From a virus (taxonomy: Duplodnaviria > Caudoviricetes), in the IMG/VR virus record IMGVR_UViG_3300032240_000532, positions 1-58,261 of that record: 58,261 bases of DNA; one strand, given 5' to 3'. Positions within the stretch are counted from its first letter, which is position 1; every line of letters starts with the position of its first letter. Shown one piece after another: positions 30,801 to 49,499 of the stretch. The notes beneath the pieces are model-generated. The model was not told the origin of the DNA. It searched no databases and saw only the letters and a program-made list of their open reading frames with translations. The position numbers and the translations under genes are program-made.

Positions 30801-33546
30801 CGAGACTCCCGACATCCGTTACTCTTTGAATCAAGAGGCGGTGGCTTCTGACGTTGAAGAGACTGGTCGCAGAGACAACCTTATCTATTTGTTGCAAGAC
30901 AAACAGATTGACTTGAAGCGTGTCATCGACAACATCCGCAAGTACGGCAAGGAAATCTCCGATAAGTGGAATGCTTACCTCCAAGAAGAACTGTTCCACG
31001 GTCGCTCTGCCGCTCGTGTGAAGTACTTCATTGACCGTGAGTTGCAACCGTTGCTCCGTCAGATGTCAGATGCAAACATCACTCTCGATGAGATGGATGA
31101 CTATCTGCTTGCCCGTCATGCGAAAGAGGCGAACGCCTACATCCGCACAATCAACAAAGACCCGAAAGCCAATTCGGGTATGACGGACAAAGAGGCTGAC
31201 GATTACATTGCGGCTATCCCCGCACCTCGTCGCCAAGCGTTTGAACGCATTGCCAAACAAGTGGATGCCATGACCAAAGAGACCCGCCAGTTGATGGTGG
31301 ACTATGGTCTTGAGAAGCAAAGCACAATTGACACTTGGGAAAAGACCTACAAGAACTATGTGCCGTTGTTCCGTGAGGAAACTGAAGGTTCGCCTATTAG
31401 CACTGGTCGTGGTTATTCCATCCGTGGTTCGACTACCCGCACCCGTACAGGTTCGTCCAAGGGTGTGGTCGATGTGTTGGCAAACATCGCCATGCAACGT
31501 GAGCGCACTATTGCCCGTGGTGAGAAGAACCGTGTGGGCAACGCACTGTATGGCTTAGTTGCTCAGAACCCCGACAATAAGTTTTGGATGGCTATTGCGC
31601 CCGACAATGTCAGCAGAGCAAACCTTGAGAGCGAACTCTTGGGCATGGGCTTGCCGCCCGATGTGGCAGACAACCTTGCCAAGAAACCCAAAGAGCGTGT
31701 TCTCAATACGGTCACTGGCGAGTACGAGTACAAAACAAATCCGCTGTGGCTCCAGCAACCCAACGTTTTCCTAACCCGTGTAAACGGGGAAGACCGAGTC
31801 ATCGTGTTCAACATGGACAACGAACGTGCTTCACGCATGGCGGTGACCTTCAACAACTTGGATGCCAACCAACAGTCTCAGGCGCTTGCCATGATGGGAA
31901 CTGCGGGTGAGTATGTCCAAGGAACCATTAACACCGTTGGCAAGGCTACCCGTTACTTTGCCGCAGTGAACACCCAATACAACCCTGCGTTCAGTATCTA
32001 CAACTTCATGCGTGATATTGGCGGTGCAGTTTTGAACTTGCAGAGCACCAAACTTAAAGGCAAAGAGTTTGAGGTTATCTCTAATGCGTTCACCGCATTG
32101 AAGGATGTGTATCAAGACTTGCGCTTGGTCAGAGCGGGTGAACGGGCTACATCGAAGTGGGCACAAATCTTTGAAGAGTTTGAACTCGAAGGCGGTAAGA
32201 CTGGCTTCCGTGATTTATTCAACTCCTCTGAAGACAGAGCCAAAGCACTGCAAGCAGAACTTGACTCGTTTAAACATGGTGGAGTTAAGACCAAGGCTAA
32301 GGCGGTGTTTGACTGGTTGTCGGATTTCAACGAAGCCGTGGAAAACTCTATACGTGTTTCTGCGTATGCGTCTGCCAAAGAGATGGGCATGTCCAACGCA
32401 CAGGCGGCAAGCCTTGCCAAGAACCTGACCGTGAACTTCAACCGCACTGGTGCGGCAAGCAAGAACTTCACAACCCTCTATGCGTTCTTCAACGCATCGG
32501 TACAGGGTTCCGCTCGTATTGCTCAGACCCTCATGAACCCTGACGGCAAACTGAGTTCAGCAGGGAAGATGATTGTCAAAGGTGGTTTGTCACTGGGTGT
32601 CATGCAAGCCGTGTTGTTGGCAATCGCTGGCTTTGAGGAAGATGAACCGCCTGAGTTTGTTAAGGACAAGAACTTCATCATCCCCTATGGCGATAAGAAG
32701 TATCTTGCTATCCCGATGCCACTGGGGTTCAACGTCTTCCCATCGTTCGGTAGACGTGCCACTGAGTTTGCAATGTCCCGTGACAAGAACGTGGGCAAGG
32801 CAATGTTCGGCATGACCGAGATGGTATTGGATGCGTTCAACCCGTTGGGCAGTGCAACCTTTGCGCAAACTCTGACTCCAACCTTGCTTGACCCGATTGT
32901 TGCTTTGGCTGAGAACAAAGACTTCTCCGGCAGACCAATTGCCAAGGAAGACATAAACAGTTTAAACCCTACACCGGGCTATACACGAGGCAAAGAAAAC
33001 GCTTCTGCGGTTAGCACGGGCTTGGCTTATGCGGTCAACTTGCTCTCAGGTGGAAGCGAATTCAAGAAGGGTGTCATCAGTCCAACGCCTGACCAAATTG
33101 ATTATTTGATTGGTCAAATTACAGGCGGTGTGGGTCGTGAGATTCTGAAAGTTGAGAAGACTCTAACTGCCAAATCAACTGGTGAGGAACTGGCAACCTA
33201 CAACATTCCAGTGGTGGGTCGCATGCTTGGTGACGTGAAGCAGAAGACGGTTGAGACATCACGCTTCTACGACAACGTTCAGAAAATGAACGAGCATCAG
33301 CATGAGATTGAAGGTCTTGCCAAGTCGGGCAGGGATGCAAGCGAGTATCTGCAAGACAATCCCGAAGCCGCATTGTACAAAGTCGCAGACAAAATCTACA
33401 ACAAAGTCTCTGACTTGAAGCACAAGCGCAAAGAGTTGAAGGCTAAGGGCGCAACCGATGCAGACTTGAAAGGTTACGACGAAGCCATTCTTCTCTACAT
33501 GCAAGCCTTCAACGAAGCGGTCAAGGACGCTAAGTCTTCCCGCTAA
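24862..33546 (+). CDS. Giant polyvalent virion protein (zincin metallopeptidase, glycosylase-like, ADP-ribosyltransferase-like and LPD38-like domains)
   Basis: 2894 aa; HETIH (~27436); GLDWY...GPKV..F..NL...VTVDKWM.R; FKRWFGDSKIVDEDGNPKVMYHGT...NPNQIKSATGN; C-terminal LAIPMPLGF...ENKDFSGRPI...PDQIDYLI. Confidence 0.78.
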   Translation: MARDFSAELFGSPQGAGKDFGAELFGAEPPPDTGFTGALKSSYERMKGEGALLAGKVGLMSLPEAEEYNKQQELKAQKAFKPTQEGWTEAPFTKLKELAGGSLPYMVAPLAAGAAAAGTVALAPEAAVLGGLATAAEAAGFLGATAASATQFTGSNLARQMEEGKKLEDTSLLAAGATAIPQALLDTASSFITPGLGRILGKAGIKATEKEIGEIAKKGIMSTAGEYALQGAKISGIEGATEAGQQFLERMQAGLNLTDEDARKEYYDNFLGGAILGGVMGGAGHAYEKAFPQKAAKALPDTPPQNKQEAQDTAVKILALPAPEEIIADTRRYDPVMNPLGNFIDDDLKDILTPAQIKRINDDRKEAGKPKINSYSVEDVHDAIQNSTDDQGNALTPEAQQGILNSLITFKSGYDGTMPVTPETVLQMAEQKNVEPNTQGFNDFLTRVTGLDDLNNMQPPQLYAAWKALSNLDDSPQLRILPQGTNAVRFTEKQYTNALDGLQTVFGELGTDALSATSVKAELKEFSGLERDADVDALYRAAVQRGDLEENFQEVKTTEGVKHPLTVSFAGKVEALPGGFDIRNQAFKQGEIPEHYEVRNGRVVQGRAPTMEEAQKILDEQTQVNAEVAKKPEAAITKLRKDIDMRNRVLAEKRATGYYDTDGYKALEAHLNGLNRRAEAQIAQHENDIRNLTNPLSIVPSETTKPVVGKKHVFYEGEKPLASFENKTQAEEYGMMRKNENGEYAVPDSMLQQIIDTAPTTKGILPKRYAEMAKKELARRQGTAPKGIEIRRSIYNPEVDAALDGLRQTLLPQLKKFGLEKVGLRIVNSIADGQADGAYLKNLITVALDAKNPMGVLRHETIHALKDLGAFTPQEWKVLENKAKSEWVQKYIKDAGLYKAYQDAYKKEHGNLNGFDAYINEEAIAEAFKDFANNKPPAGLIGNIFYRIGEMLRGIANTFKRLGFTSVDQIFRKIEAGEMRTAAEPTTTEKKSYKRFEPESMKVVFEVAPDPNNTELSERWNAMPQAGRLEISNRVAEQIVKKALQETGFKGKVESQVGSYLNDTNPSFALVLQKGDPVVMAKFLGHALSQDSMMVLSPTAGKGLDATGAITVAVGDKTAEEVDAIYQKLRKIRLYGEQPIGGQSTINGNMVILNYSNVETEKLAREIDYALGREYNVEHTEIYTAFPEKEDYNYASTEDVGTEEERNLRGRSNSLRAEASQLLQEELDSYRPPEPTVRPSRRSAEGIVLGEKQDGALSYEGTHYGKVQANTLVGRMYGSGIRGAERERLDQSNDSRIKKRVYFYIEKPNGQMPLREAGLGPHIHRQNFDNILGPSSEMNRISNLAKGDSNKFESLVVDEGFDGYAIPDMGVMVILNHDVPVKYEGSTAEGKYSLKTPEGGYKSNALNIMEGVVEKPDLGKKPTVEAIAKYFDGLYPERLDYNDPTNFAQAVDKAKEELKHQIAKENSGLDWYDEDIAKAFKETARVIPELKKPNKRVLFTIIAGIMSPETTARDNWVIAAQAFKHYIDTGEIPGNNPATGGLWQGGVTSPNKRTQLNLLNNMVKDLGEKGALNWLTTDHTVREINEARAKYGNIKSGIGGKATDMVPALYTFGPKVGPFVSNLNGIHDVTVDKWMTRTFNRYFGTMIGANGEVADAPTEPQRRAIKNLINEVAKDANVKPYQAQSLLWFFEQSLFRELGAPAPSYGFSDGATKFLGQNSQGRDGGGAKGAGSNAPSTATLGRLSIRAPETPEFKRWFGDSKIVDEDGNPKVMYHGTARDITEFKPKQANAIFVTENAGFADHFTSASEDYMRKELWNKSDHKKHIEWIKKATNQAKKDGYVTPKEASRIISESEMIDGTYGTIPSEIEVQVWDVLNDQLPSKANIMPVYVRAENPFDYENPKHVERVLAEVYPNLDMKNSSAEESLQLGNWERIESKEYQNAIKALGFDSFYVKEGDVKNLAVYNPNQIKSATGNVGTFGETPDIRYSLNQEAVASDVEETGRRDNLIYLLQDKQIDLKRVIDNIRKYGKEISDKWNAYLQEELFHGRSAARVKYFIDRELQPLLRQMSDANITLDEMDDYLLARHAKEANAYIRTINKDPKANSGMTDKEADDYIAAIPAPRRQAFERIAKQVDAMTKETRQLMVDYGLEKQSTIDTWEKTYKNYVPLFREETEGSPISTGRGYSIRGSTTRTRTGSSKGVVDVLANIAMQRERTIARGEKNRVGNALYGLVAQNPDNKFWMAIAPDNVSRANLESELLGMGLPPDVADNLAKKPKERVLNTVTGEYEYKTNPLWLQQPNVFLTRVNGEDRVIVFNMDNERASRMAVTFNNLDANQQSQALAMMGTAGEYVQGTINTVGKATRYFAAVNTQYNPAFSIYNFMRDIGGAVLNLQSTKLKGKEFEVISNAFTALKDVYQDLRLVRAGERATSKWAQIFEEFELEGGKTGFRDLFNSSEDRAKALQAELDSFKHGGVKTKAKAVFDWLSDFNEAVENSIRVSAYASAKEMGMSNAQAASLAKNLTVNFNRTGAASKNFTTLYAFFNASVQGSARIAQTLMNPDGKLSSAGKMIVKGGLSLGVMQAVLLAIAGFEEDEPPEFVKDKNFIIPYGDKKYLAIPMPLGFNVFPSFGRRATEFAMSRDKNVGKAMFGMTEMVLDAFNPLGSATFAQTLTPTLLDPIVALAENKDFSGRPIAKEDINSLNPTPGYTRGKENASAVSTGLAYAVNLLSGGSEFKKGVISPTPDQIDYLIGQITGGVGREILKVEKTLTAKSTGEELATYNIPVVGRMLGDVKQKTVETSRFYDNVQKMNEHQHEIEGLAKSGRDASEYLQDNPEAALYKVADKIYNKVSDLKHKRKELKAKGATDADLKGYDEAILLYMQAFNEAVKDAKSSR

Positions 33547-36706: not shown

Positions 36707-37079
36707 TCACCATTTCATCGAATAGTTGTTGCGCTTCTTGTTTGCCGTTAAGTTCAGTTCTTGATTTGATTCCGCATATTGCGTAGATGGCTTTGATTGC
36801 ATCATCCTCGTTTACACGGTCAGCGTGGCCCGCCTCTTTCAACCAAAACTGAAACTCTCTTGATTTGCACAGCATCCCCGCCCGTTGCACACGGTTGTGA
36901 TATGGCGTTGGCGATTCATCATCTTGGATGCGAACCATTGCCACGCCATACCGAGAACCGACAAAGTCCCTGAGAAGTTCCTCGGGGATTTCATCGGGGT
37001 GCATGCTCAGAGTAAGAACGTAGCCAGTACGGTCTTGCTTGAGCGCAACCTTGACACATTCAAACTGGAGTGCATTCAT
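36669..37079 (-). CDS. Hypothetical protein
   Basis: 136 aa, ...CGIKSRTEL... Confidence 0.6.
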   Translation of the reverse strand: MNALQFECVKVALKQDRTGYVLTLSMHPDEIPEELLRDFVGSRYGVAMVRIQDDESPTPYHNRVQRAGMLCKSREFQFWLKEAGHADRVNEDDAIKAIYAICGIKSRTELNGKQEAQQLFDEMVNEYERWNKEEPF

Positions 37080-37438
37080 TGAGAACTCCTCAACCCAATC
37101 TGATTTTCAAGATAAGAGATGACCGCACGGTAGCCAATCATTTGGTGCTCAAGATTTGTGACCTGAGCAAGCAACACCGAGTTGTCATCCATCAACTGCA
37201 AGTTGTCATCGGTCAACTTCTTGATTCGATTCCAACGTTCTTGCATCGAGATGGATTGCTTCTTGATGGTGTCCTGACGTTTCAGTGCAACCATTTCTTT
37301 GACGAACTTCTCTTTGGGAACGCCAAGTTTTTCAGCGATTGCAATTTGGCTTGCAGTCACGATGATTTTCTTGGGCTTGTTCTTTGAACCCTTTGGGCGA
37401 CCAATAGGTTTAACTGCGGTATCAGAAGGGGATGTCAT
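37076..37438 (-). CDS. Hypothetical protein with GRPKGSKNK DNA-binding motif and coiled coil
   Basis: AT-hook-like GRPKG motif. Confidence 0.55.
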   Translation of the reverse strand: MTSPSDTAVKPIGRPKGSKNKPKKIIVTASQIAIAEKLGVPKEKFVKEMVALKRQDTIKKQSISMQERWNRIKKLTDDNLQLMDDNSVLLAQVTNLEHQMIGYRAVISYLENQIGLRSSQ

Positions 37439-37718
37439 CGTCTTGCTCCTGTGAATGCTGAGGTTGTTGATAGCCGCCTTGTTCTTCTTTCTTCCAAGGC
37501 TTGGAGATGGTCAGGCTCAGGCGAGGCTTGCCGCTTTGAGTTGTCTCTTTCCATCCTGAGATGGAGATGTCAATCATCCCGTCCACCACATCGAACTGAC
37601 TCAGGTCGATACGGGCGTTGCCCTTGTAGTCGGGCGACTTGGGATTCGTCTTCACTGAGACGGGAACAATGCTTCCCTTGTTGGGTTTGTTCACGTAGGG
37701 TTTATCGTATGCAGTCAT
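37422..37718 (-). CDS. Putative single-stranded DNA-binding protein
   Basis: PDYKG...ISGW...LSLTI plus acidic C-terminal DDDIPF tail. Confidence 0.7.
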   Translation of the reverse strand: MTAYDKPYVNKPNKGSIVPVSVKTNPKSPDYKGNARIDLSQFDVVDGMIDISISGWKETTQSGKPRLSLTISKPWKKEEQGGYQQPQHSQEQDDDIPF

Positions 37719-37719
37719 T

Positions 37720-38412
37720 TCAGTCTTCCTTTACATTGGCTGATTTCAGGGATGCGAATCCATCTTTAAGTCGTTTAAACAACTCAGGCTCGCTGGTTTT
37801 CAGGTCGTCAATCTGACTCTGATTTGCTTTCCACAAACCTTGGAGTTCGGCAGTGGATGAGAACTGCGAGGCGACATCCAAGAGGGAATCGACAAGCAGT
37901 ACTTTGTTGGGGTCAGGCACACCTTTGCTTGCGGCTTTGGCGGCAATCTTTTCGTAGGCGGGTGCGTCTTCCTGTTTGGTGAGTTCACCCATAGGACGCA
38001 CGGCTTCTTTCGGTTTGGCTTTTGTCTCAGGTGCAACACCGCCTGTCGTTGCATCAAGCGCATCGTGTTCAACGATAGCCATCGCAGTGACATAGAGGTA
38101 TCGACGTTGGTACGTTTCAACCGCACCAATGTTCTGCACCTCGTGGCATCCCTTCAACTGGGCTGAACCCATAGGCGATGTAAACACCACAGACGAGCCA
38201 TCCTCGCAGTCGTAGATAGTCATCGTTGAAAGGTCAGCGGTGAATGTGATGACATCCACCAAGCCCACCTCAGCAAAGATGGATTGAATCTCAGGCAAGA
38301 AGTCACCGAGTTCAAAGTATTGATACCCCGCAAACTTGTTGTGCCCCGACTTCTTCAAAGCCTTGTGCGCAAGGATGTTCCTTGCCAATACCAATTTCGA
38401 ATAGACCTTCAT
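37720..38412 (-). CDS. ERF-family ssDNA annealing protein
   Basis: KKSGHNKFAGYQYFELGD...QNIGAVETYQRRYLY. Confidence 0.82.
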   Translation of the reverse strand: MKVYSKLVLARNILAHKALKKSGHNKFAGYQYFELGDFLPEIQSIFAEVGLVDVITFTADLSTMTIYDCEDGSSVVFTSPMGSAQLKGCHEVQNIGAVETYQRRYLYVTAMAIVEHDALDATTGGVAPETKAKPKEAVRPMGELTKQEDAPAYEKIAAKAASKGVPDPNKVLLVDSLLDVASQFSSTAELQGLWKANQSQIDDLKTSEPELFKRLKDGFASLKSANVKED

Positions 38413-38630
38413 TTCATTTCCCCTTTAACACCGTAAATCACACAAATCGTTTTGTCATCGTGCATGTTTAAAGCGCATGCAACTTTCATTGGGTCAGCAC
38501 CGTTGCTCACCATCTCACTCATCATGAGTCGCTTCCCCGCCATCGTGTAAGTGACGGCAAAGATAAGTGCCAACACAAACGCCAGTAGGTAACCCCACAT
38601 CCAAATCCAAAACCTATCTTCATTACTCAT
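38409..38630 (-). CDS. Small membrane protein
   Basis: One TM helix; aggaggctca RBS. Confidence 0.6.
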   Translation of the reverse strand: MSNEDRFWIWMWGYLLAFVLALIFAVTYTMAGKRLMMSEMVSNGADPMKVACALNMHDDKTICVIYGVKGEMK

Positions 38631-39513
38631 CTTGAGCCTCCTTCAAAGATTGTTGATACTGCGTACACCATTGCGCTACACCACAGAAGTTGCCAGTGCA
38701 TCGAACGGCTTCACCCTTGCGGATTTCTATGAACCCTTTATCTTTCTCGGGCATGTCTTTCAACAATGCCTGAGCCTCCTCCTCGGTGTCCAAGACTCTG
38801 ATTGCAGTCTTGCGACCTTCCTTCTTGACTGCATACTTGGTTTCCCGAATCCATCGGTCTTCCTCGGTGCACAGTGGCAACTCTTCATCCCAGTCAGCCT
38901 TGACCTTGGACTCACGGTGAGCCTCAATGCGTGACCGTATAAACGCCTCAACCTTCTCGGTGTCCCACATCGGGATGTCGAGAACTTGAATGGGTGCTTG
39001 TGGGTAGTTGGCTTTGTTCTGCGCATCACGACGAGACCAGTCTCGAACCAGTGCACAAATCTTCAAGCCCTTGACGGGTTTCTTTTTTACTCGTTCAATG
39101 AGGTACTTGTAGATGTTCTGTTGTTGTTCCCACTCGGGCTTGTCATTCATGAGCGCCCATGCTGAAGTGAACTTGTAGTCATAGATGATGACCCCGTCCT
39201 CATCGTCTTGTTGCAAGTCGATAGCGCCTGAGAGAAGCACATCATCAAATCCAACGATGATGCGTTCCTCATTGGTGTGACCCTCAACAACTGAGCGTTC
39301 TGCAACAACGTGCAGTGCAGTGCCCAAGAGCATCCACAACATGTCGCTGACATCCTGTTCAATGTCATCGAAGTGGCGCTTGCGTAGGCGCTGAATGCGA
39401 GGGGGAGAGATGATTTCAGTAACAGAGTAGTCAGCCCTACCCTTGGTATAGAAGTCCCTCTGTGCCAGTGCCACGAGAGTGGCGGGTACATTAAACTTGT
39501 TCGTAATCTTCAT
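38623..39513 (-). CDS. PD-(D/E)XK (Cas4/lambda-exonuclease-like) exonuclease
   Basis: GTALH...E...SGAIDL...YDYKFT...QQNIY; C-terminal Cys cluster. Confidence 0.8.
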   Translation of the reverse strand: MKITNKFNVPATLVALAQRDFYTKGRADYSVTEIISPPRIQRLRKRHFDDIEQDVSDMLWMLLGTALHVVAERSVVEGHTNEERIIVGFDDVLLSGAIDLQQDDEDGVIIYDYKFTSAWALMNDKPEWEQQQNIYKYLIERVKKKPVKGLKICALVRDWSRRDAQNKANYPQAPIQVLDIPMWDTEKVEAFIRSRIEAHRESKVKADWDEELPLCTEEDRWIRETKYAVKKEGRKTAIRVLDTEEEAQALLKDMPEKDKGFIEIRKGEAVRCTGNFCGVAQWCTQYQQSLKEAQDE

Positions 39514-39560
39514 GAAGCCTCCAGTTAAAGAACCTACATGCTAACACTACTTTTACAACA

Positions 39561-39929
39561 ATGCAAACACTATCACTAAAAATATTTGGAGAACCGTGCT
39601 CCAAAGCAAATAGCCGTCGAATCGTAAAGATGGGAGGGCGCATAGCCTCCATCAAGTCTCAGAAGGCGCTGTCTTACTCAGAGTCGTTTAAACAGCAGTG
39701 CGTTGTACCGCCTCTGCTAAGATTCATGTCGGAGGATGTTGCGGTAACGATTCGCATTTGGTACGCATCTCGTCGCCCTGATTTGGATGAGTCGCTCATC
39801 CTTGACTTGCTTCAAGACGTTGCGTATCACAACGACCGCCAAGTTAAAGAGAAGCACATCTACTGGATGGGCGTGGATAAGGGCAACCCACGGTGTGAGA
39901 TAGAGGTAACACCTATCGCACAGGCATAA
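39561..39929 (+). CDS. rusA: RusA-like Holliday junction resolvase
   Basis: GEPCSKANSR...RPDLD...LDLLQ...YHNDRQV...PRCEIEV. Confidence 0.78.
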   Translation: MQTLSLKIFGEPCSKANSRRIVKMGGRIASIKSQKALSYSESFKQQCVVPPLLRFMSEDVAVTIRIWYASRRPDLDESLILDLLQDVAYHNDRQVKEKHIYWMGVDKGNPRCEIEVTPIAQA

Positions 39930-39955
39930 AAAAAGCCACCGCTGAGGGTGGCTTT
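39928..39955 (-). terminator. Intrinsic terminator (U-tract on minus strand)
   Basis: aaagccacc/ggtggcttt stem preceded on the + strand by a 7-A tract. Confidence 0.8.
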
Positions 39956-39999
39956 CCGACCTACTGGTCTACTGACAGGAGGCTCATTTCCAATCGAGT
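39928..39999 (-). ncRNA. Candidate ~70-nt small RNA carrying anti-SD UGAGCCUCC
   Basis: Leftward TTGACT-16-TACCAT promoter (40033-40006), terminator at 39928-39955 and no ORF between them. Confidence 0.5.
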
Positions 40000-40005
40000 G
40001 ATGCT

Positions 40006-40033
40006 ATGGTAACGCATCTACACGTGAAGTCAA
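40006..40033 (-). promoter_or_regulatory. Sigma70-like leftward promoter
   Basis: -35 TTGACT, 16-nt spacer, -10 TACCAT on the minus strand. Confidence 0.5.
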
Positions 40034-40112
40034 CAACCAAGAACGTTCTTCTTGTAAATTATTTTTAGGTGTGCAAAATCAGTTGTGCAGTTGCCACCAC
40101 AAGCGGCAATTT

Positions 40113-40148
40113 AGGGAGTGTTTAAACGACACTCCCTTTTTTATTTTT
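40113..40148 (+). terminator. Intrinsic terminator with GTTTAAAC at the loop
   Basis: agggagtgt...acactccct followed by a T-tract. Confidence 0.75.
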
Positions 40149-40220
40149 CATCCCGGCTGAGTTGAACATCGTTTAAACATTCGATGCTAAAAATAAATAT
40201 CGTTCGCATGTCAAACCCTC

Positions 40221-40250
40221 TTGTGTTCGTATCGTAATTGGCGCTATCAT
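40221..40250 (+). promoter_or_regulatory. Sigma70-like promoter
   Basis: TTGTGT-18-TATCAT. Confidence 0.4.
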
Positions 40251-40259
40251 GAACATTCG

Positions 40260-40440
40260 TTTCAGTCGTCGGTGAAAAACGGTGGGGCTGAAACTTGATA
40301 CTGATACCGTGGGAAGTGCTGAAACATCAGGTGAGGTGGCGAAGATAGAACCTCTTGCACGAAAAGTCTGTCGGGTCGCACACGTGCGTGAAGGCAGACT
40401 AGGATAGGGCTTGGTCTGCCCACAAAAGGGCAGACAACAA
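40260..40440 (+). ncRNA. Candidate structured RNA / long leader upstream of HNH and primase-helicase
   Basis: Several helices: acggt/accgt, ctgat/atcag, agtctg/cagact, cgcac/gtgcg and gtctgccc/gggcagac. Confidence 0.4.
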
Positions 40441-40482
40441 CATACATCACAACAATACGTACATCACAACAATAGGCAAGTT

Positions 40483-40719
40483 ATGGCAACAAGTAAATCA
40501 CGTGACTGGAAACATGAATACGCTTTGCAATTAAAGCGTGGTGATGACAAGGGTCAACTTGAACGCCAAAAGGCTCGTCGCCTATACGATAAGGAAGGAA
40601 TCAAACGCACAGGAAAAAACATCGACCACATCAAACCCATCAAGTCAGGCGGTAAAACAACCGCAGGGAACTTGAGACTACGTTCACCAAAGGCGAACAA
40701 GTCAGACAATAAAAAATAA
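40483..40719 (+). CDS. Small HNH-like basic protein
   Basis: NIDHIKPIKSGG...NLRLRSPKANKS. Confidence 0.65.
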   Translation: MATSKSRDWKHEYALQLKRGDDKGQLERQKARRLYDKEGIKRTGKNIDHIKPIKSGGKTTAGNLRLRSPKANKSDNKK

Positions 40720-40744
40720 TTTTCAATCAATCGGAGGCTCACTC

Positions 40745-42442
40745 TTGAATGCAATCGCAGATGTAATTCTTTCCATGCACGTTGATGACCATCAACGCAT
40801 CGCATGTCCTGAGTGCTCATACGAGCGCAGAAAATCCAACTTGAAAGACCTCGTCATTGACCGCAAGGATGACGGATGGACTTACTTTTGCCATCACTGT
40901 GGCACAGGAGGATTTGTCACCGCCAAGCAAAAAACTTTTCAACCCATTTACCGTCCGGAGACCAAAGTGATTCCACTAAGAACAATGCCCACAACCCAGT
41001 TGCAACCTCAGCACTACGACTTTCTGAAGAAGCGAGGCATATCGGAACACACCGCCAATGAGTTGAAATTGTTTTCTGCCCAGAAATACTTTCAGCGTTT
41101 AAACAAGCAGACCGATGCAATCGGCTTTCCTTATTTTAAAAACGGTCAGTTCGTTTCAGCCAAGTACCGCAGTATCGAATCGAAGGACTTCACTCAAGAC
41201 TCAGGCGGTGCTCACGACTTCTTTGGCATCGACCACATCGACCAGTCGCAACCAGTTGTCATAGTCGAAGGCGAGATGGATGCACTGACCGTATGGGAAT
41301 GCGGCATCAAGAATGTTTTGTCAGTTCCAAGCGGTGCACCCATGAAGGTGACCGATGGCAAGATTGACGCAAGCGAAGACAAGAAGTTCAGTTTCGTTTG
41401 GAGTGCGTTTGACATGCTCAAAGCAGTTCCATACGTCATCATCGCCACTGATACCGACACTGCGGGACAAGCACTCGCTGAAGAACTCGCAAGGCGAATT
41501 GGAAAAGACAAGTGCAGAGTTGCCAAGTTTGGTTACAAGGATTTGAACGAGGCGTTTCTTGCCGAAGGTGAGGACATCGTTAAGGACATCATCGACAAAG
41601 CAGAACCATACCCAGTTGCAGGTTTATCATCCGCCAGCAAGTTTGCAGAGCGTTTAAACGACTTGTTTGTAAAAGGAACAGGCAAAGGAACATCGACAGG
41701 GTATTCGAACGTTGACCAAATCTACACGGTGGCAGAAGGTCAACTCACAGTGGTGACAGGTTATCCATCATCAGGCAAGTCGAACTTTGTTGACCAACTC
41801 ATGGTCAACCTCGGGCGGTCAAACGATTGGAAGTTTGCACTCTGTTCATTTGAGAATCAGCCCGAGATTCACATCAGCCGCTTGATGGAGATTTACAAAG
41901 AGAAGCGATTCTTTGACGGCTCACAACGGATGACAGAAGAAGAAAAGAATGAAGCGTTTAAATGGGTTGAAGACCACTTCATGTTCCTTGACTCCGAAAG
42001 CGTAGAACCCGCAACCATCGACTCAATCCTCGAACGAGCAAAAGTGGCAGTCGCAAGGACTGGCATCCGAGGTTTGGTCATCGACCCCTACAACTACATC
42101 GACAACAAGAGCGGCATGGCTGAGACAGAGTTCATCAGCAACATGCTTACCCGAGTACAGGCGTTTGCAAAGGCGTACGGTGTGCACGTGTGGTTCGTTG
42201 CTCACCCCGCAAAGATTACCCGCTCAGGCATGGACTTGCCCCGTCCTGACGGCATGGCAATCTCAGGCTCAATGGCTTGGTGGGCGAAAGCAGACTGCGG
42301 CATGACCGTACACCGCACGAAGAACCACGGTGTCGAGGTTGCCGTTTGGAAGTGTCGCTATCGTTGGGTTGGTACGCAAGGCGAGACCACATTGGTCTAC
42401 AACAAAATCACTGGCACGTACTCCGAACCCGATGCGTTCTGA
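40745..42442 (+). CDS. T7 gp4/Twinkle-like primase-helicase
   Basis: Zn finger CPEC...CHHC; TOPRIM IVEGEMDAL and ATDTD; Walker A GYPSSGKS; LVIDP; ggagg RBS before a TTG start. Confidence 0.92.
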   Translation: MNAIADVILSMHVDDHQRIACPECSYERRKSNLKDLVIDRKDDGWTYFCHHCGTGGFVTAKQKTFQPIYRPETKVIPLRTMPTTQLQPQHYDFLKKRGISEHTANELKLFSAQKYFQRLNKQTDAIGFPYFKNGQFVSAKYRSIESKDFTQDSGGAHDFFGIDHIDQSQPVVIVEGEMDALTVWECGIKNVLSVPSGAPMKVTDGKIDASEDKKFSFVWSAFDMLKAVPYVIIATDTDTAGQALAEELARRIGKDKCRVAKFGYKDLNEAFLAEGEDIVKDIIDKAEPYPVAGLSSASKFAERLNDLFVKGTGKGTSTGYSNVDQIYTVAEGQLTVVTGYPSSGKSNFVDQLMVNLGRSNDWKFALCSFENQPEIHISRLMEIYKEKRFFDGSQRMTEEEKNEAFKWVEDHFMFLDSESVEPATIDSILERAKVAVARTGIRGLVIDPYNYIDNKSGMAETEFISNMLTRVQAFAKAYGVHVWFVAHPAKITRSGMDLPRPDGMAISGSMAWWAKADCGMTVHRTKNHGVEVAVWKCRYRWVGTQGETTLVYNKITGTYSEPDAF

Positions 42443-42458
42443 CCAACTGCTGTATTTT

Positions 42459-42494
42459 CCGCACTTGCGGTAATCCACGCCGCACTTGCGGTAA
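42459..42494. repeat. 15-bp tandem direct repeat, 21-bp period
   Basis: ccgcacttgcggtaa at 42459 and 42480. Confidence 0.85.
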
Positions 42495-42537
42495 GCGTTT
42501 AAACGGCTTGCGTTTAGGGAATTCCCACGCAAAAAGC

Positions 42538-42575
42538 AAAAAAAATCCCCCCGAGGTTTGCACCAAGGGGGGAGA
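42538..42575 (-). terminator. Terminator for leftward early operon
   Basis: tcccccc/gggggga stem with an A-tract on the + strand. Confidence 0.7.
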
Positions 42576-42604
42576 ACTAGTGTCAGTTGGCTTGTCCAGT
42601 CTGC

Positions 42605-42874
42605 TTAATCGTTGACCACATCGTCAATGCAAGACTCGATGAAGTCCCAGTTGATTCCAATGTTTGCATCGTGGTAGTGCTCCATGTATCGAAGCACATC
42701 ACGGGCTTGCTCATCGGTCAGGTCTTGCCTGACCTCTTGCACATCAGACACATGCCAAAACGAGGATGACCAGTTGTGGTCGATGCCACGCTCTGCCCAG
42801 TCCTTTGCTCGTTTAAACATCTCAACGTCCGGTGTGATGTCGTCTCTGATTTCAATCTCGATTGTGTATTTCAT
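42605..42874 (-). CDS. Hypothetical protein
   Basis: ggagg RBS; W..SDV...DLTDEQARDVL...HDANIGINW. Confidence 0.7.
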   Translation of the reverse strand: MKYTIEIEIRDDITPDVEMFKRAKDWAERGIDHNWSSSFWHVSDVQEVRQDLTDEQARDVLRYMEHYHDANIGINWDFIESCIDDVVND

Positions 42875-42888
42875 GATGCCTCCAGTGG

Positions 42889-43107
42889 TTAGTGAACGGG
42901 TTCGTTGTTGTGAGAATTCTCAACATAGTGAAACACGATGGTCATGGTCACATACTTGAGAAGGTCTTCAAGCGGGATGCCGCACATCACACCCGCACTC
43001 GCCAGTTGATTGGAGAGCACGGGAATGACGATGCCGATTTCCTTGTTGTTGAGTTCAGCGCCCACAGAATTCATGAGCGCCTCGATTTGTTTTTGTTCAG
43101 TGGTCAT
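42889..43107 (-). CDS. Hypothetical protein
   Basis: ATGA-coupled to the VWA gene. Confidence 0.55.
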   Translation of the reverse strand: MTTEQKQIEALMNSVGAELNNKEIGIVIPVLSNQLASAGVMCGIPLEDLLKYVTMTIVFHYVENSHNNEPVH

Positions 43108-43907
43108 TGCAGTTCCTTGAGCAACTTGTTGAATGATGTCGAGGTCAAGTCGCCAACACTGCGCACATTCTCTGCACTGCGGAAGCATTCCTTGACATCG
43201 GTGTTGCCGATACCGATGGCGACAATCTTGATGCCCTCACGGTCAGCGACCGACTGCAAAAACTTCATGTTGGTGATGTTGTACCCGTTTGCATCGGTCA
43301 ACAAGAACAAGATTTTGCGGAACTCTGAACGACTTGCCAAGTCTTCAAGGGCAAGGGTGATGGACGAGTAGTCGGGCGTTGCAGAGTTTGCCCAACGGTT
43401 AATCGAACCCAACTTGGCAGAGGCACGTTGCAAAGAGTCACGCCATGTCTTGAATGGGATGAGGCTTGGAGCCTCGTACTTGACTACCAGTCTGCCACTC
43501 GCACCAGTCGCATCCTTGTGCATCACATCGCTACTGCCACGAAAGCCAGTCACATTGAACGGCACATTCGCTTTGTCGAGAATGCGGGAGAGTTGAATTG
43601 CAACCGACTCGGCAACCTCGATGCGGTCGTAGTCGTTCATTGAACCTGAGCAGTCGATGAGGATGGACACCGCAGATGTCTCAGCCTCACGATACTCACG
43701 CTTAGAGAAAATGGCGGTACTGCCAGTGGCAAAGCGTGTAAACGCTTTACGGTCAAGGCGACCCGACTCTTCATGAGTTGACCAACCGACCAAGTCGAGA
43801 GAGCGAAGCAAGCGCAAGAGGTTTGCACGAGTCGCACCCAAGCCACTGGGTTGTGAGTTGTAGATTTGGGAGAAGTTGTTTTCGCATTCTGCTTTGTTGA
43901 GGTACAT
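43104..43907 (-). CDS. VWA domain protein (CobT C-terminal-like)
   Basis: SGRLD, MIDAS motif DCSGSM, TPD, LLTDA, AIGIG. Confidence 0.85.
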   Translation of the reverse strand: MYLNKAECENNFSQIYNSQPSGLGATRANLLRLLRSLDLVGWSTHEESGRLDRKAFTRFATGSTAIFSKREYREAETSAVSILIDCSGSMNDYDRIEVAESVAIQLSRILDKANVPFNVTGFRGSSDVMHKDATGASGRLVVKYEAPSLIPFKTWRDSLQRASAKLGSINRWANSATPDYSSITLALEDLASRSEFRKILFLLTDANGYNITNMKFLQSVADREGIKIVAIGIGNTDVKECFRSAENVRSVGDLTSTSFNKLLKELQ

Positions 43908-43910
43908 GAT

Positions 43911-45029
43911 TCAAATCCATGAAAAAGTTGTGAAAGATGGTTTGCCAATTGATGGACGATGCACGAGTGAACCGTCAACCTTGGCATGCTTGCCGAGTTC
44001 GTTCTCGATGAAGTCGGATGGTTCAACATCACGACCGCCCTCGAAGTCCTCGTTGGAATAGCCCCCGCCAGTTTGGTCGGATGGCTTGTCACCGTCTTGC
44101 CCGTCACCGCCCTGACCATCAGCGGGTTGACCATCGTCAGGCTGACCGTCATCCGATTGACCGTCAGTGGGCTGACCGTTCGTATCAGAACCCCAGTCAT
44201 CCGCATCAGAACCGCCCTCAGAGGGATTTTCTGAACCGTCCGAGGGGTTGCCCTCACCTTGACCGTTCGCATCGTCTGAGCCGTTGTCATCTTGCGGTGT
44301 GCTCTCATCGGGCTGACCATCGGATGGCTGACCCTGACCTTGCTCGGGTTGCTGAGGTTGCTCAGGCGGTTGCTGAGGTTTTTGTTTCTCTTGTTCCTTG
44401 ATGCGCTCGAACAACTCGATGGCAATCTTGGCGATGGTGCGGGTGTCCTTGGCGACTTGCGCTCTCTTGAGTGCCCACTTGATGTGCTTTGCCCAAGGCG
44501 AGGCGTTGACGATGCTTGGAACGCAGATGTCATAGCCGTTTAAACGCCTACCCTCGACCGCAAGCAGGAACGGGATGTTGCGCTTGTCATCAGCCTTGAC
44601 ATACCCGTCACGCTTGAGCACTGAGTTGATGAGATTCTCGAAGAGCACACGAGAGTTCGGTGCACGACCCGAGTCAATCACCAGTCGCTCGATGCGAGGG
44701 TCTTCAAGACCGTTGATGAGGTTGCTGACATACGAGCCGTGTTGCTCACGAGCATTGTCCCAAGGTCTGTTGTCGGTGTACCAAGCATGACCGAGTTCAT
44801 GCAGAGCGTAGCCGATGAGGTTGTTGAAAGTCTCTTGCGGGATGTTCGCCAGTTCGTCAATCGAGGGGAAGATTAACTTGGCATCACACCGATACTCGTT
44901 GCGGTCAAAGATGATTCCCGCAGTCGAACCCGACCACAAGACTTCCAACTTGCCGAACTCAAAACCCGCTGAGTTGTGAACCCGTTCGAGGGTAGTGGCA
45001 ACGCCACGCTTGACATTTAAACCGAGCAT
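43911..45029 (-). CDS. CobT N-terminal-like HExxH metallopeptidase with acidic G/D/Q-rich linker
   Basis: GYALHELGH...NGLEDPRIE followed by a long low-complexity D/G/Q tail. Confidence 0.75.
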   Translation of the reverse strand: MLGLNVKRGVATTLERVHNSAGFEFGKLEVLWSGSTAGIIFDRNEYRCDAKLIFPSIDELANIPQETFNNLIGYALHELGHAWYTDNRPWDNAREQHGSYVSNLINGLEDPRIERLVIDSGRAPNSRVLFENLINSVLKRDGYVKADDKRNIPFLLAVEGRRLNGYDICVPSIVNASPWAKHIKWALKRAQVAKDTRTIAKIAIELFERIKEQEKQKPQQPPEQPQQPEQGQGQPSDGQPDESTPQDDNGSDDANGQGEGNPSDGSENPSEGGSDADDWGSDTNGQPTDGQSDDGQPDDGQPADGQGGDGQDGDKPSDQTGGGYSNEDFEGGRDVEPSDFIENELGKHAKVDGSLVHRPSIGKPSFTTFSWI

Positions 45030-45031
45030 GA

Positions 45032-46507
45032 TTAAACCTTTCTGAGATAAGACTTCAAAGCGACCGTGTCGATGGTTGCTTGGAACACACCCCGCAGTTC
45101 TGATTCACAGTCAGCGGGAAACTTGTTGATGATGGCGTTGTCGAATGCGAGAGCGACTGGCACACCTTTTTGAATCGACCGTGCCCAAGCGAACAACTGA
45201 CGCAACGATGGAGGCTGAGTCAAGATTCCGGCACGGGCTTTCTCACGAGCCACGGTTGCAAACTTCACGAGCACGGTGCTTGCATCGTGTGACAAGCCAG
45301 TTCGTTTTGTGATGAGGTTGACCTCGTCAGCGAATGGCAAGTACTCGAAGTTCAGCGTGTACGAGAAGCGGTCAATGAAAGCCGTGTTTTGGTCACGCAC
45401 ACCCGCAAAGTTACCGGACGCATCGCCATGACCGTTCGAGTTGTCAGCGCAGAAGAACGCCACATGCGAAGCGACTGGGATGCGAGTACCCGTCTCAGCA
45501 ATGACGATGGAGCGGTGAGGTGAGCGTTCGCACAAAGCATGCAAGACCGCCAAGTTCTGCGCACGGGCAAAGCCAATCTCATCGAGCAACACGAGAGCAC
45601 CCGTGTGTTGGATTGCCTGAGTGATGACACCCGCTTTCCACTCGACATTGCCATTGACGATGGTGTTGCCGCCAATGAATTCAGCCCGTTCGATTGCCTC
45701 ATCGAAGTTCACTCGGAAGAGTCTACGACCGAGGCGTGATGCAACTTGTGACACGAACTCAGACTTGCCAGTGCCACGCTCACCCGCAAGCCACACATTG
45801 TCGGGCAGTGGGTCATCGAGGGCGATGAGTGCTTGGTGCAAGTGCTTAGGGTTGAAAATGTAATCATCGACAAGAGCGGGGGTGTTGACATCGTTCCACA
45901 CATCGACATCGAGGTCACCGAAGTCGATGCTCTCATTGCCGACCTCGTATTGCAAGGGGGCGGGAAAGACATCACGAGCCTTGACACGCTTGCTCGTGGG
46001 CAGAGCGTTCGCAATGACGGTGAGTTCCTCCGGTGTTGACTGAGTGCGGAAAGTGTCGAACAGAGCGGAGACCTCCGAGCGAATGATGTTCTCGACCTTG
46101 CCGTAGTCCACGCCTTGGATGGCTTGAATGTCAGCGTTTAAACGGGTTGCAAGGTCGGTGATTTTCTTCTCGTTGGAGATGGCGTTTTTGTGCACGGTGT
46201 CAAGAACATTGTTGGCAACCTCTTGCACCGCCTTGACGGATTCGACCGCCTTGGCAACCTCGAACTGGGTGTTGAGAATTTTCTTGCGAATCTCATCGGG
46301 CACTGCGGGTTCGAGAGCGACCTTGGTCGTTTGAGTGGGGACGCAAGCACGAACTTGGTCGATGGTGATGCGACCTTGTTGGACGGCACGAACGAGAGCG
46401 GTGACCGCATCGTTCTTTGTGGTGCACAAGGGTTCGCCAATCGAGGTCAAGGCGATGTTGAGTTGTTGGGTTGGGATGAGAGCGAGTTCACGAGTGAAGT
46501 TGGACAT
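45032..46507 (-). CDS. MoxR/CobS/CbbQ-type AAA+ ATPase
   Basis: Walker A GERGTGKS; Walker B LLDE; FIDRF; SLRQL; ggaggctca RBS. Confidence 0.88.
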   Translation of the reverse strand: MSNFTRELALIPTQQLNIALTSIGEPLCTTKNDAVTALVRAVQQGRITIDQVRACVPTQTTKVALEPAVPDEIRKKILNTQFEVAKAVESVKAVQEVANNVLDTVHKNAISNEKKITDLATRLNADIQAIQGVDYGKVENIIRSEVSALFDTFRTQSTPEELTVIANALPTSKRVKARDVFPAPLQYEVGNESIDFGDLDVDVWNDVNTPALVDDYIFNPKHLHQALIALDDPLPDNVWLAGERGTGKSEFVSQVASRLGRRLFRVNFDEAIERAEFIGGNTIVNGNVEWKAGVITQAIQHTGALVLLDEIGFARAQNLAVLHALCERSPHRSIVIAETGTRIPVASHVAFFCADNSNGHGDASGNFAGVRDQNTAFIDRFSYTLNFEYLPFADEVNLITKRTGLSHDASTVLVKFATVAREKARAGILTQPPSLRQLFAWARSIQKGVPVALAFDNAIINKFPADCESELRGVFQATIDTVALKSYLRKV

Positions 46508-46531
46508 TTGAGCCTCCAAAAAAAAGTTAAA

Positions 46532-47101: not shown

Positions 47102-47292
47102 TTTGTGAGCCTCCGAAAAGTTGATTTGACAAGGTTGCGACCGATGCACTCGCCTGAGTGCACCGAGCCGTCAGCGTAGGTGAAAGATTCCCCGCAACCT
47201 CCCGCCCAGTCGAGCAGACCGATGAGCAAGAGAATGACGAGAACGAGGGAAAGGGTGAAGCCGATGATGTATTCGGTTGCCTTGTGCATCAT
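47098..47292 (-). CDS. Small membrane protein
   Basis: One TM helix followed by GCGE...GEC. Confidence 0.6.
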   Translation of the reverse strand: MMHKATEYIIGFTLSLVLVILLLIGLLDWAGGCGESFTYADGSVHSGECIGRNLVKSTFRRLTK

Positions 47293-47435: not shown

Positions 47436-47824
47436 GGTTTGAGCCTCCATTGAGAGTTGAGAATTGATGCGATTGCATCCGCAAGTGCACTGCGAACAAT
47501 GCACTTGAAGGGCAATCCCTTGTCACCCTTATTCACGAGGGTGAGACATGGGGTCAGAGCCTTGCGCACACTGCTGAGAGTGTCAGACCGACTTTGCTTG
47601 CCCCCCGAAAATGTGTAGGTGGTAGGGCGTGAGTGAGTCGGTCAGCGTAGGTGTCTGACATAGTCATGAGGGCTTGCGTTTTCTCAGTCTGTCCCCGAAT
47701 GGTGTAGGTGGGTGACATGTCGAGAGGTGCGTTCCTCACGGGCTTTCTGCTCGGGCTAGAGTGTTTGCGAGTCACTCATCAAAGCCGTCATTTGTCGTTC
47801 AGTGCAAGCACCGAACTGAGACGA

Positions 47825-49095: not shown

Positions 49096-49152
49096 TACGA
49101 ACGTTCTCCCCCTACCCCTACATATAAATTCCTGATAACATACGAACGTTCT
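49096..49152. promoter_or_regulatory. Paired TACGAACGTTCT boxes (operator-like)
   Basis: Identical 12-mers at 49096 and 49141 with palindromic core GAACGTTC; the second abuts the aggagg RBS. Confidence 0.5.
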
Positions 49153-49163
49153 TAGGAGGTTAT

Positions 49164-49499
49164 ATGAAACAAGAATCTACTGAAATTATTCACCCAACAG
49201 GTGGCTTTGGTCTTTTAGAATCAAAACCAAACTACATGCTGTCTTTCCACAAAGAAGGCAAACAAGTTGGCACGTTTGACTTTAACGAAGGCAAGATGCA
49301 CTTTGAAGGCGAACTATCTGAGAGCGGTGAAATATTTGTTGACTGGGTTATTGGTGCGTTTAAACAGCGTCTTGATGATGCGGTTAAAGCGGAGCGTGAG
49401 GCATGCGCAAAACGAGCAAGCGTTGCACTTCTTGGTACGCTTCAAAAAACATCAGACAGAGTCTTGAGAGCCATTCAAAAAGGTAATGATGCCACTTAA
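49164..49499 (+). CDS. Hypothetical protein
   Basis: aggagg RBS; ...AVKAEREACAK. Confidence 0.7.
   Translation: MKQESTEIIHPTGGFGLLESKPNYMLSFHKEGKQVGTFDFNEGKMHFEGELSESGEIFVDWVIGAFKQRLDDAVKAEREACAKRASVALLGTLQKTSDRVLRAIQKGNDAT

Follow-up and report, generated by a model that had tools for sequence, protein, structure and literature searches.

The virus record IMGVR_UViG_3300032240_000532 (Duplodnaviria; Caudoviricetes) is complete, with direct terminal repeats at the ends of its 58,261 bp, and the whole of it is referred to here as the window. In its early region, near position 40,000, a first-pass annotation made from the sequence had placed the gene of a small RNA (sRNA) that would be transcribed leftward and would pair, through a seed complementary to an extended Shine-Dalgarno (SD) sequence, with the ribosome-binding sites (RBSs) of several genes of the same phage. 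To the left of this candidate gene lies a leftward operon (PD-(D/E)XK exonuclease, ERF and small open reading frames, ORFs) followed by a rightward rusA, and to its right a rightward pair of genes, HNH and primase-helicase; further right is a second leftward operon, from 47.4 to 42.6 kb, with a CobS-like AAA+ ATPase and a CobT-like protein. The core of the proposal is supported by the co-variation of seed and RBSs among related phages and by the conserved anatomy of the gene, and the locus probably encodes a trans-acting anti-SD sRNA that would repress the phage's own replication and early genes.

Anatomy of the candidate gene and its target motif

The first-pass annotation had seen a leftward promoter (TTGACT-16-TACCAT) and a terminator with its U-tract on the minus strand bracketing about 70 nt without an ORF, and all three elements were found as described (Table 1). 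The 5' end of the putative RNA was taken from the -10 box and its 3' end from the U-tract. Its last hairpin, with the stem GCCACC/GGTGGC at 39957-39930, is followed by a run of seven U (U7) on the minus strand only; this hairpin is absent from the list of a general terminator scan of the region. The sole AUG frame in the stretch, read by eye, has 8 codons, and its AUG is missing in relatives that have UUAAGCC or GAUUAGCC at the seed, while no plus-strand ORF of at least 25 aa overlaps 39930-40070. The fold of a 76-nt RNA has an energy of -27.3 kcal/mol (z -3.2), with one of 200 shuffles as stable. No curated Rfam family matched over the sRNA at its gathering threshold, the sub-threshold matches being terminator look-alikes. 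Judged from sequence, the unit has what is expected of a trans-acting sRNA, namely, a promoter of its own and a Rho-independent terminator around a short non-coding unit, and a conserved, accessible seed; the U7 tail would be compatible with dependence on an Hfq-type chaperone.

The complement of the seed, GGAGGCTCA, occurs in seven exact copies in the window, where 0.29 are expected, and none of 100 shuffles reached seven. As the first-pass annotation had stated, five of the copies are RBSs, 1-4 nt ahead of start codons, a further one is gene-internal (38771-38779, within the exonuclease gene), and partial matches precede 39513 (GGAGGCTTC), 42874 (GGAGGCATC) and 56291 (GGAGGCTTA). The remaining copy, at 39978-39986 on the plus strand, is an orphan with no start codon behind it and no ORF. 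In a ranking of window genes by duplex energy with the first 32 nt of the RNA, the five genes with the exact motif came out at 1, 2, 3, 4 and 7 of 89. The predicted targets lie 0.4-7.5 kb from the sRNA gene and comprise at least five matched RBSs in three operons and on both strands; the nearest target, the primase RBS at 40733, is 734 nt away on the opposite strand. Two details of the first-pass annotation did not hold. The label "SprT-like" for one of the targets finds no Pfam match with the 205-aa form of the protein, and the 189-aa form falls in an unnamed PHROGs family. That most late genes use AAGGAG was an overstatement: by a crude gene caller, an AGGAG-type site is present in 7 of 37 late genes, and GGAGGCT is carried by only one of the 37.

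Accident alone, that is, a chance coincidence of promoter match, hairpin and repeated 9-mer, is barely credible as an explanation. It draws some support from the promoter, which is the sole promoter-like site in 38500-41000 at the stringency of the scan, one such site in 2.5 kb being no more than shuffles give (2.9 expected) and no enrichment in itself. Against it stand the shuffles of the motif and the more than 50 contigs, with primases 63-80% identical, in which the whole unit is preserved and shows compensatory changes; chance is contradicted by the results of the covariance model, complementarity, permutation and pair-change analyses given below.

Table 1. Coordinates in the window of the candidate sRNA gene, its parts, the predicted target sites and an adjacent palindrome.
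Feature	Position	Strand	Remarks
Candidate sRNA gene, ~73 nt	39927..39999	-	covariance model R1 75.3 bits, E 5.6e-16; three hairpins
Sigma-70-like promoter	40006..40033	-	-35 TTGACT 40033-40028, 16-nt spacer, -10 TACCAT 40011-40006
Putative anti-SD seed UGAGCCUCC, loop of hairpin 1	39978..39986	-	invariant core, variable flanks in homologues
Hairpin 1 (SL1)	39971..39999	-	stem from lineage-specific flanks around the seed
Hairpin 2 (SL2), GACC AGUA GGUC	39958..39969	-	4/4 pairs changed on both sides; 100% of cells paired
Hairpin 3, intrinsic terminator with U7 tail	39928..39957	-	8/9 pairs changed on both sides
Predicted target RBS, 73-aa hydrophobic ORF upstream of ERF (start 38630)	38633..38641	-	duplex rank 1/89
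Predicted target RBS, 48-aa ORF, first in leftward 47.4-42.6 kb operon (start 47435)	47440..47448	-	duplex rank 2/89
Predicted target RBS, CobS-like AAA+ ATPase (ATG at 46507)	46509..46517	-	exact motif; duplex rank 3/89; seed-complementary in 6/6 genomes
Predicted target RBS, primase-helicase (TTG start 40745)	40733..40741	+	exact motif; duplex rank 4/89; orthologous RBS co-varies with seed
Predicted target RBS, 189-aa protein (phrog_6361; start 47101)	47106..47114	-	exact motif; duplex rank 7/89
Possible weaker target, GGAGGCTTC before PD-(D/E)XK exonuclease	39514..39522	-	8 pairs, one G-U
12-bp palindrome AAGAACGTTCTT	40039..40050		starts 5 bp upstream of sRNA -35 box; operator-like

Conservation of the RNA and its co-variation with ribosome-binding sites

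A search with the primase-helicase retrieved 170 viral stretches, 80 of which were kept, and with the window these make 81 sources. BLAST found the segment 39914-39995 in 31 of the 80 kept stretches, and the covariance model R1, built from 27 distinct sequences, gave a full-length minus-strand match in 57 of the 81 sources; further copies were found in locus L064 by pattern and, by the model, in a contig of a betaproteobacterial metagenome-assembled genome (MAG). Six whole or nearly whole genomes each have exactly one copy. The flanking signals are kept with it: among 44 distinct homologues, a sigma-70-like promoter that matches at 9 or more of 12 positions is present in 40, the end of its -10 box lies 2-9 nt ahead of the model match in 39, and all have a U-rich tail, with at least 6 T in the final 9 nt. 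In an evolutionary sense, the sRNA gene is real.

The structure of the RNA has likewise been maintained. In hairpins 2 and 3, 12 of the 13 modelled pairs have changed on both sides and 99.8% of cells are paired, a value reached by none of 500 shuffles and compared with 28-56% in slid controls, in an alignment that was fitted to the covariance model and so favours structure. The flanks that form the stem of SL1 pair better with their own partners (-4.72 kcal/mol) than with those of other lineages (-2.59 kcal/mol), none of 5000 permutations being as low; this cognate versus non-cognate test replaced a control by shuffling of the 3' flank, which had given only z -0.53, with 31 of 45 sequences below the control. 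From a MAFFT alignment, RNAalifold retrieved hairpin 3 and only a part of hairpin 2, and missed hairpin 1 because its stems lie at variable offsets. Of 45 minimum-free-energy folds, 33 have the seed closed off by a stem while 5 or more of its 7 core nucleotides stay unpaired.

Outside the stems, the only invariant block among 27 aligned homologues is AGCC-CC, and the positions around it vary. There are six seed variants, UGAGCCUCC (in the window, L017, L008 and L022), UAAGCCUCC, UUAGCCUCC, AAAGCCUCC (L041), UAAGCCCCC and UUGGCCUCC (L064), which form the classes UGA-, UAA-, UUA- and AAA-GCCUCC, UAAGCCCCC and UUGGCCUCC, and each has its matching RBS variants. It was on such co-variation of seed and RBS extension that the first-pass annotation had staked its case, and the two do co-vary, the RBSs that change with the seed being those of the primase-helicase, the CobS-like ATPase, the exonuclease and small ORFs. 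The 57 sources compared were the window and 56 related loci; in 53 of them, the exact complement between the seed region and the cognate primase RBS is 9-14 nt long, and in two others 8 nt. For 31 distinct representatives, complementarity averages 10.4 nt with the cognate site and 8.1 nt with non-cognate ones, and 0 of 10,000 permutations, which take no account of common descent, were as high. The CobS-like ATPase RBS is complementary to the seed in six of six genomes carrying four seed variants, as is the primase RBS (five by the filter and G004 by a separate reading). The exonuclease, the 189-aa protein and small ORFs are seed targets in some lineages, and the orthologues of the exonuclease RBS are the exact seed complement in several relatives. 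Short complementarity at several unlinked initiation regions, kept in evolution, is a mark of trans-acting sRNAs, and it is found here.

The changes are spread over the phylogeny of the group. On a primase tree obtained by a quick maximum-likelihood search, seed class needs seven changes, where four is the minimum possible; L024 (UUA) is nested in a UAA clade with a support of 96, and the CCCCC clade, with a support of 100 for the clade, is likewise nested in a UAA clade. In the CCCCC clade, the change extends to the SD itself (GGGGG), which is GGGGCUUA at the primase and GGGGGCUUA before other genes. L064 has a G at the seed position where A is otherwise invariant, and four RBSs within 5.9 kb, those of the primase and exonuclease among them, are GGAGGCC, versus one GGAGGCT. 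Matches also extend into the flanks beyond the seed in a lineage-specific manner, e.g., UCGGAGGCUAAUC or AACCGGAGGCUA.

The relatives that lack the RNA are informative in the same respect. In 14 loci with at least 2900 nt upstream of the primase there is no sRNA, and GGAGGC[T/C] is missing from the primase RBS of every one of them. When ten sRNA-less loci (L058 and nine of the 14) were searched with filters off, nothing better than E 0.12 came up. Presence and absence agree, in that relatives without the RNA lack the RBS extension; in L058, the motif is kept and no sRNA was found, the upstream sequence covered being only 1.4 kb long.

Competing explanations and the proposed mechanism

The observations that weigh against a pairing RNA are of several kinds. 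Some relatives do without the RNA, and the sequencing runs that contain 37000-44000 include no RNA run. The primase site offers only 5 nt of complement in L041, where the seed variant is present at three other sites in the locus, two of them before ORFs of at least 80 aa, and in L037 it offers 7 Watson-Crick nucleotides, or 10 with one G-U. Since the generic SD supplies five of the nine paired bases, the complementarity comes in part for free; no correction for shared ancestry enters the permutation tests, and the tree search was a quick one. The strand itself is not singled out by fold energy, which has a mean of -25.7 kcal/mol for the minus strand and -26.5 kcal/mol for its complement, the minus strand being the more stable in 13 of 45 cases. 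Lastly, the transitions at internal positions (12 compatible with G-U and 6 incompatible, alongside 15 transversions) do not separate pairing from mere sequence identity.

A first alternative is that GGAGGCUNA is an extended RBS read by some other factor, e.g., a phage RNA-binding protein or a feature of the ribosome. On that view, the copy at 39978 (+) would belong to a plus-strand RNA as an orphan or decoy RBS, changes in the factor would make all copies evolve together, and the complementarity of the minus strand would be incidental. Pairing accounts no better than this for co-variation as sequence identity, the folded plus-strand complement equals the minus strand in stability, and in the clade L027-L034, an ATG does follow the orphan copy, opening ORFs of 23-52 aa. 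In most lineages, however, the orphan copy has neither a start codon nor a conserved ORF. It sits in a hairpin loop of a unit whose promoter (40/44) and U-tract (44/44) belong to the minus strand, and on the plus strand it would come downstream of the hairpin after rusA. The stems contain 12 cells that are G-U or U-G on the minus strand and would be A-C mismatches on the other, with only one cell unpaired, and this 12 to 1 count favours the minus strand. No candidate for the factor is known. On these grounds (the orientation of promoter and U-tract, the stem G-U pairs, the display of the seed in a loop and the want of an ORF behind the orphan copy), pairing is clearly the more economical model, and we regard a same-sense motif as unlikely.

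Slightly less likely again is that the locus is not a free-standing regulator at all: the short RNA would be a by-product, and the hairpin either a two-way terminator after rusA or the leader and attenuator of an early leftward transcript, one that continues antisense to rusA and enters the exonuclease operon. What makes this worth weighing is the tight packing of the neighbouring genes. The divergent starts of the exonuclease operon and rusA, the latter with no recognisable SD, leave only 47 bp between them (39514-39560), and the promoters must overlap coding DNA. At the stringency of the scan, the sRNA promoter is the only leftward one in 38500-41000, the weaker leftward candidate at 39567-39538 (TTTGCA-18-TAGCAT) having 8 of 12 matches. 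The terminator, however, has 11 pairs in the minimum-free-energy fold and a U7 tail, and a leader or terminator would leave unexplained the invariant seed, its display in a loop and its co-variation with the RBSs of other operons on both strands.

We thus return to a trans-acting sRNA, of which the conserved gene anatomy, the complementarity and the co-evolution with target sites are observed, and for which the production of the RNA, repression rather than activation, and the timing and reason of its action are inferred. In the proposed mechanism, the host sigma-70 RNA polymerase would start an RNA of about 73 nt on the minus strand (39999->39927) from the promoter at 40033-40006, and the intrinsic terminator would end it. 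The loop of the first hairpin would present UGAGCCUCC, i.e., a copy of the CCUCC anti-SD core of the ribosome plus four phage-specific bases, and would pair over 9-10 nt (9-14 nt in relatives) with the SD and spacer of several early mRNAs of the phage itself. Core targets would be the primase-helicase and the CobS-like AAA+ ATPase, and the PD-(D/E)XK exonuclease, the 189-aa protein and small ORFs would be among those that vary with lineage. Since the paired stretch runs from the SD through the spacer as far as the start codon, within the footprint of the 30S subunit, translational repression is the simplest outcome: 30S subunits would be kept off the target mRNAs and their translation lowered. 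That the CUNA extension might instead lengthen pairing with 16S rRNA was considered and rejected on the basis of the usual bacterial 16S 3' end, in which the bases that follow CCUCC do not match it.

As to what repression would be for, the shut-down or dosing of replication and early proteins during infection is favoured, with the exclusion of related phages as an alternative role. The first-pass annotation had also offered dormancy, a role without support so far. No lysogeny gene turned up among the 19 window ORFs run against Pfam, in a scan of the genome that was not exhaustive, and dosing or shut-off is therefore favoured over dormancy.

The alternative role deserves a fuller statement, although we advance it only tentatively. 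Seed and RBS extension could form a private "translation code" that sets the specificity of immunity or exclusion, with the RNA of a resident or first phage silencing the replication genes of incoming relatives, and with lineages escaping by switching the seed and all target RBSs together. That close relatives have repeatedly exchanged their seed in step with several RBSs may be a sign of selection for new specificities. This would explain the approximately seven switches among close relatives, each needing 3-6 simultaneous compensations, as well as the alterations that reach the SD core itself (GGAGG to GGGGG) and a position that does not otherwise vary (GGCT to GGCC). Since G-U pairs are allowed, cross-immunity would be predicted to run one way, a UGA seed covering UUA-type targets and not the reverse.

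Surroundings of the gene and comparison with known phage RNAs

Relatives repeatedly show a GAACG half-site ahead of the -35 box, which together with the palindrome AAGAACGTTCTT beside that box suggests that the sRNA promoter, or a divergent one, may itself be regulated. The palindrome recurs at 49098, 49143, 49786 and 55707, as exact or one-mismatch copies of AGAACGTTCT; a likely promoter ahead of the gene at 49164 has two of these copies on its flanks. Diverging from the sRNA promoter is a possible second small transcript (40052-40145, plus strand); it has a promoter-like TTGTAA-16-CAAAAT, a TTGCC/GGCAA hairpin (by eye) and a strong plus-strand terminator at 40113-40137 with GUUUAAAC in its loop, a segment conserved in some relatives. 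The 8-bp palindrome GTTTAAAC is present in 47 copies in the window (e.g., at 397, 5197, 40120, 40171, 42497 and 55326), where 1.2 are expected, and in 29-40 copies in each of five related genomes. The crude gene list places 35 of the 47 within ORFs, and their spread is even, which suggests a role at the level of DNA; some copies are located in the SD-to-ATG spacer of late genes or in the middle of terminator hairpins.

The only Rfam family passing threshold in the window is a full-length Betaproteobacteria-1 RNA (40258-40376, plus strand, 86 bits), which stands directly after a promoter-like TTGTGT-18-TATCAT (40221-40250) and upstream of HNH and the primase. Of 16 related loci scanned, 9 have the motif at 400-740 nt ahead of the primase, three of these 9 lacking the anti-SD sRNA, and it looks like a phage leader element. 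Pairing of the sRNA with this neighbour through GCCACC/GGUGGC was considered and dropped; the terminator sequences of distant homologues differ. Locus L075, also without the sRNA, has two matches to the type II hammerhead ribozyme on the minus strand (8676-8735 and 8982-9041; 39.8 and 37.4 bits), just above the gathering score. Elsewhere in the window (43104-46507, minus strand), proteins with CobT-like and peptidase-family PHROG matches come after the CobS-like AAA+ ATPase, and a 2894-aa ORF at 24862-33546 (plus strand) has the polyvalent-protein domains ART-PolyVal and LPD38.

The phages concerned are known from uncultured material. No isolate phage matched 39500-40800 by blastn, and the closest primase of an isolate is 32.5% identical, while primases with 74-76% identity are encoded on two short contigs, one of an "uncultured beta proteobacterium" MAG and one of a Burkholderiaceae MAG. 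The DNA sequencing runs that contain the stretch are mostly labelled as freshwater or aquatic metagenome.

Most of the phage regulatory RNAs that are known have either one phage transcript (c4, sar, OOP) or host genes as their target. The sar RNA of P22 and the OOP RNA of lambda are cis-antisense RNAs, sar covering the ant RBS; they resemble the candidate as short phage RNAs with intrinsic terminators that pair with phage mRNAs, and differ in being transcribed opposite a single target to which they are fully complementary, whereas here there is no overlap with a target and a seed of 9-14 nt. The c4 RNA is encoded upstream of its target operon and is processed from the transcript that also carries the target. 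That arrangement is not found here, the candidate having its own promoter on the strand opposite to the primase. In the loop sequences of the c4 antisense RNA of P1/P7, which pair around a phage mRNA RBS and block translation (PMC12197685), there is nevertheless a close likeness: a small phage RNA with a loop over an RBS and matched changes of RNA and target between related phages (heteroimmunity). c4 acts on the single transcript icd-ant and so on an antirepressor, whereas at least five RBSs, including those of replication genes, would be addressed here. When 39850-40450 was compared with all 4227 Rfam families, c4 was not among the nine matches up to E 10. With no model match, its own promoter, no target overlap and targets in three operons, the candidate is not a member of the c4 or cis-antisense families.

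Outside these families, T4 RegA is a protein that represses many phage early mRNAs at their initiation regions, through loosely defined AU-rich sites. The parallel is that one phage product shuts down many of the phage's own early mRNAs at initiation, the difference being that the effector proposed here is an RNA that would base-pair with a shared SD extension. The RsaE/RoxS sRNAs of Firmicutes act in trans, with C-rich loops that pair with the G-rich SD of many mRNAs; they are chromosomal, serve host metabolism and have several UCCC motifs, as opposed to one CCUCC-plus-4 seed aimed at the phage's own genes. SviR, an sRNA of the Vibrio PLE satellite, is reported to regulate genes across viral genomes (bioRxiv 10.1101/2022.04.08.487710); it too is encoded by a mobile element, but one that is a satellite, and acts on a different phage as well as on the satellite, and no anti-SD seed or co-variation of seed and RBS is reported in the opening of the abstract. 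Full-text searches of the literature, covering main texts without supplements, and passages of a 2025 review revealed no phage sRNA with an anti-SD seed that controls the phage's own replication genes.

What would be new here is a regulon of a phage's own replication and recombination genes, controlled by a phage sRNA through a shared and co-evolving SD extension. If the interpretation is true, the RNA would be a counterpart of early shut-off of the T4 RegA type or would constitute an RNA immunity code, in the latter case an RNA-based heteroimmunity aimed at replication genes in an apparently lytic group of phages. It would also provide a new RNA family for the annotation of uncultured freshwater phages and a natural set of orthogonal translational repressors, the at least six matched seed/RBS classes being ready-made orthogonal pairs. 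More broadly, an extended RBS motif in a phage genome can be the clue to a hidden regulon of an sRNA.

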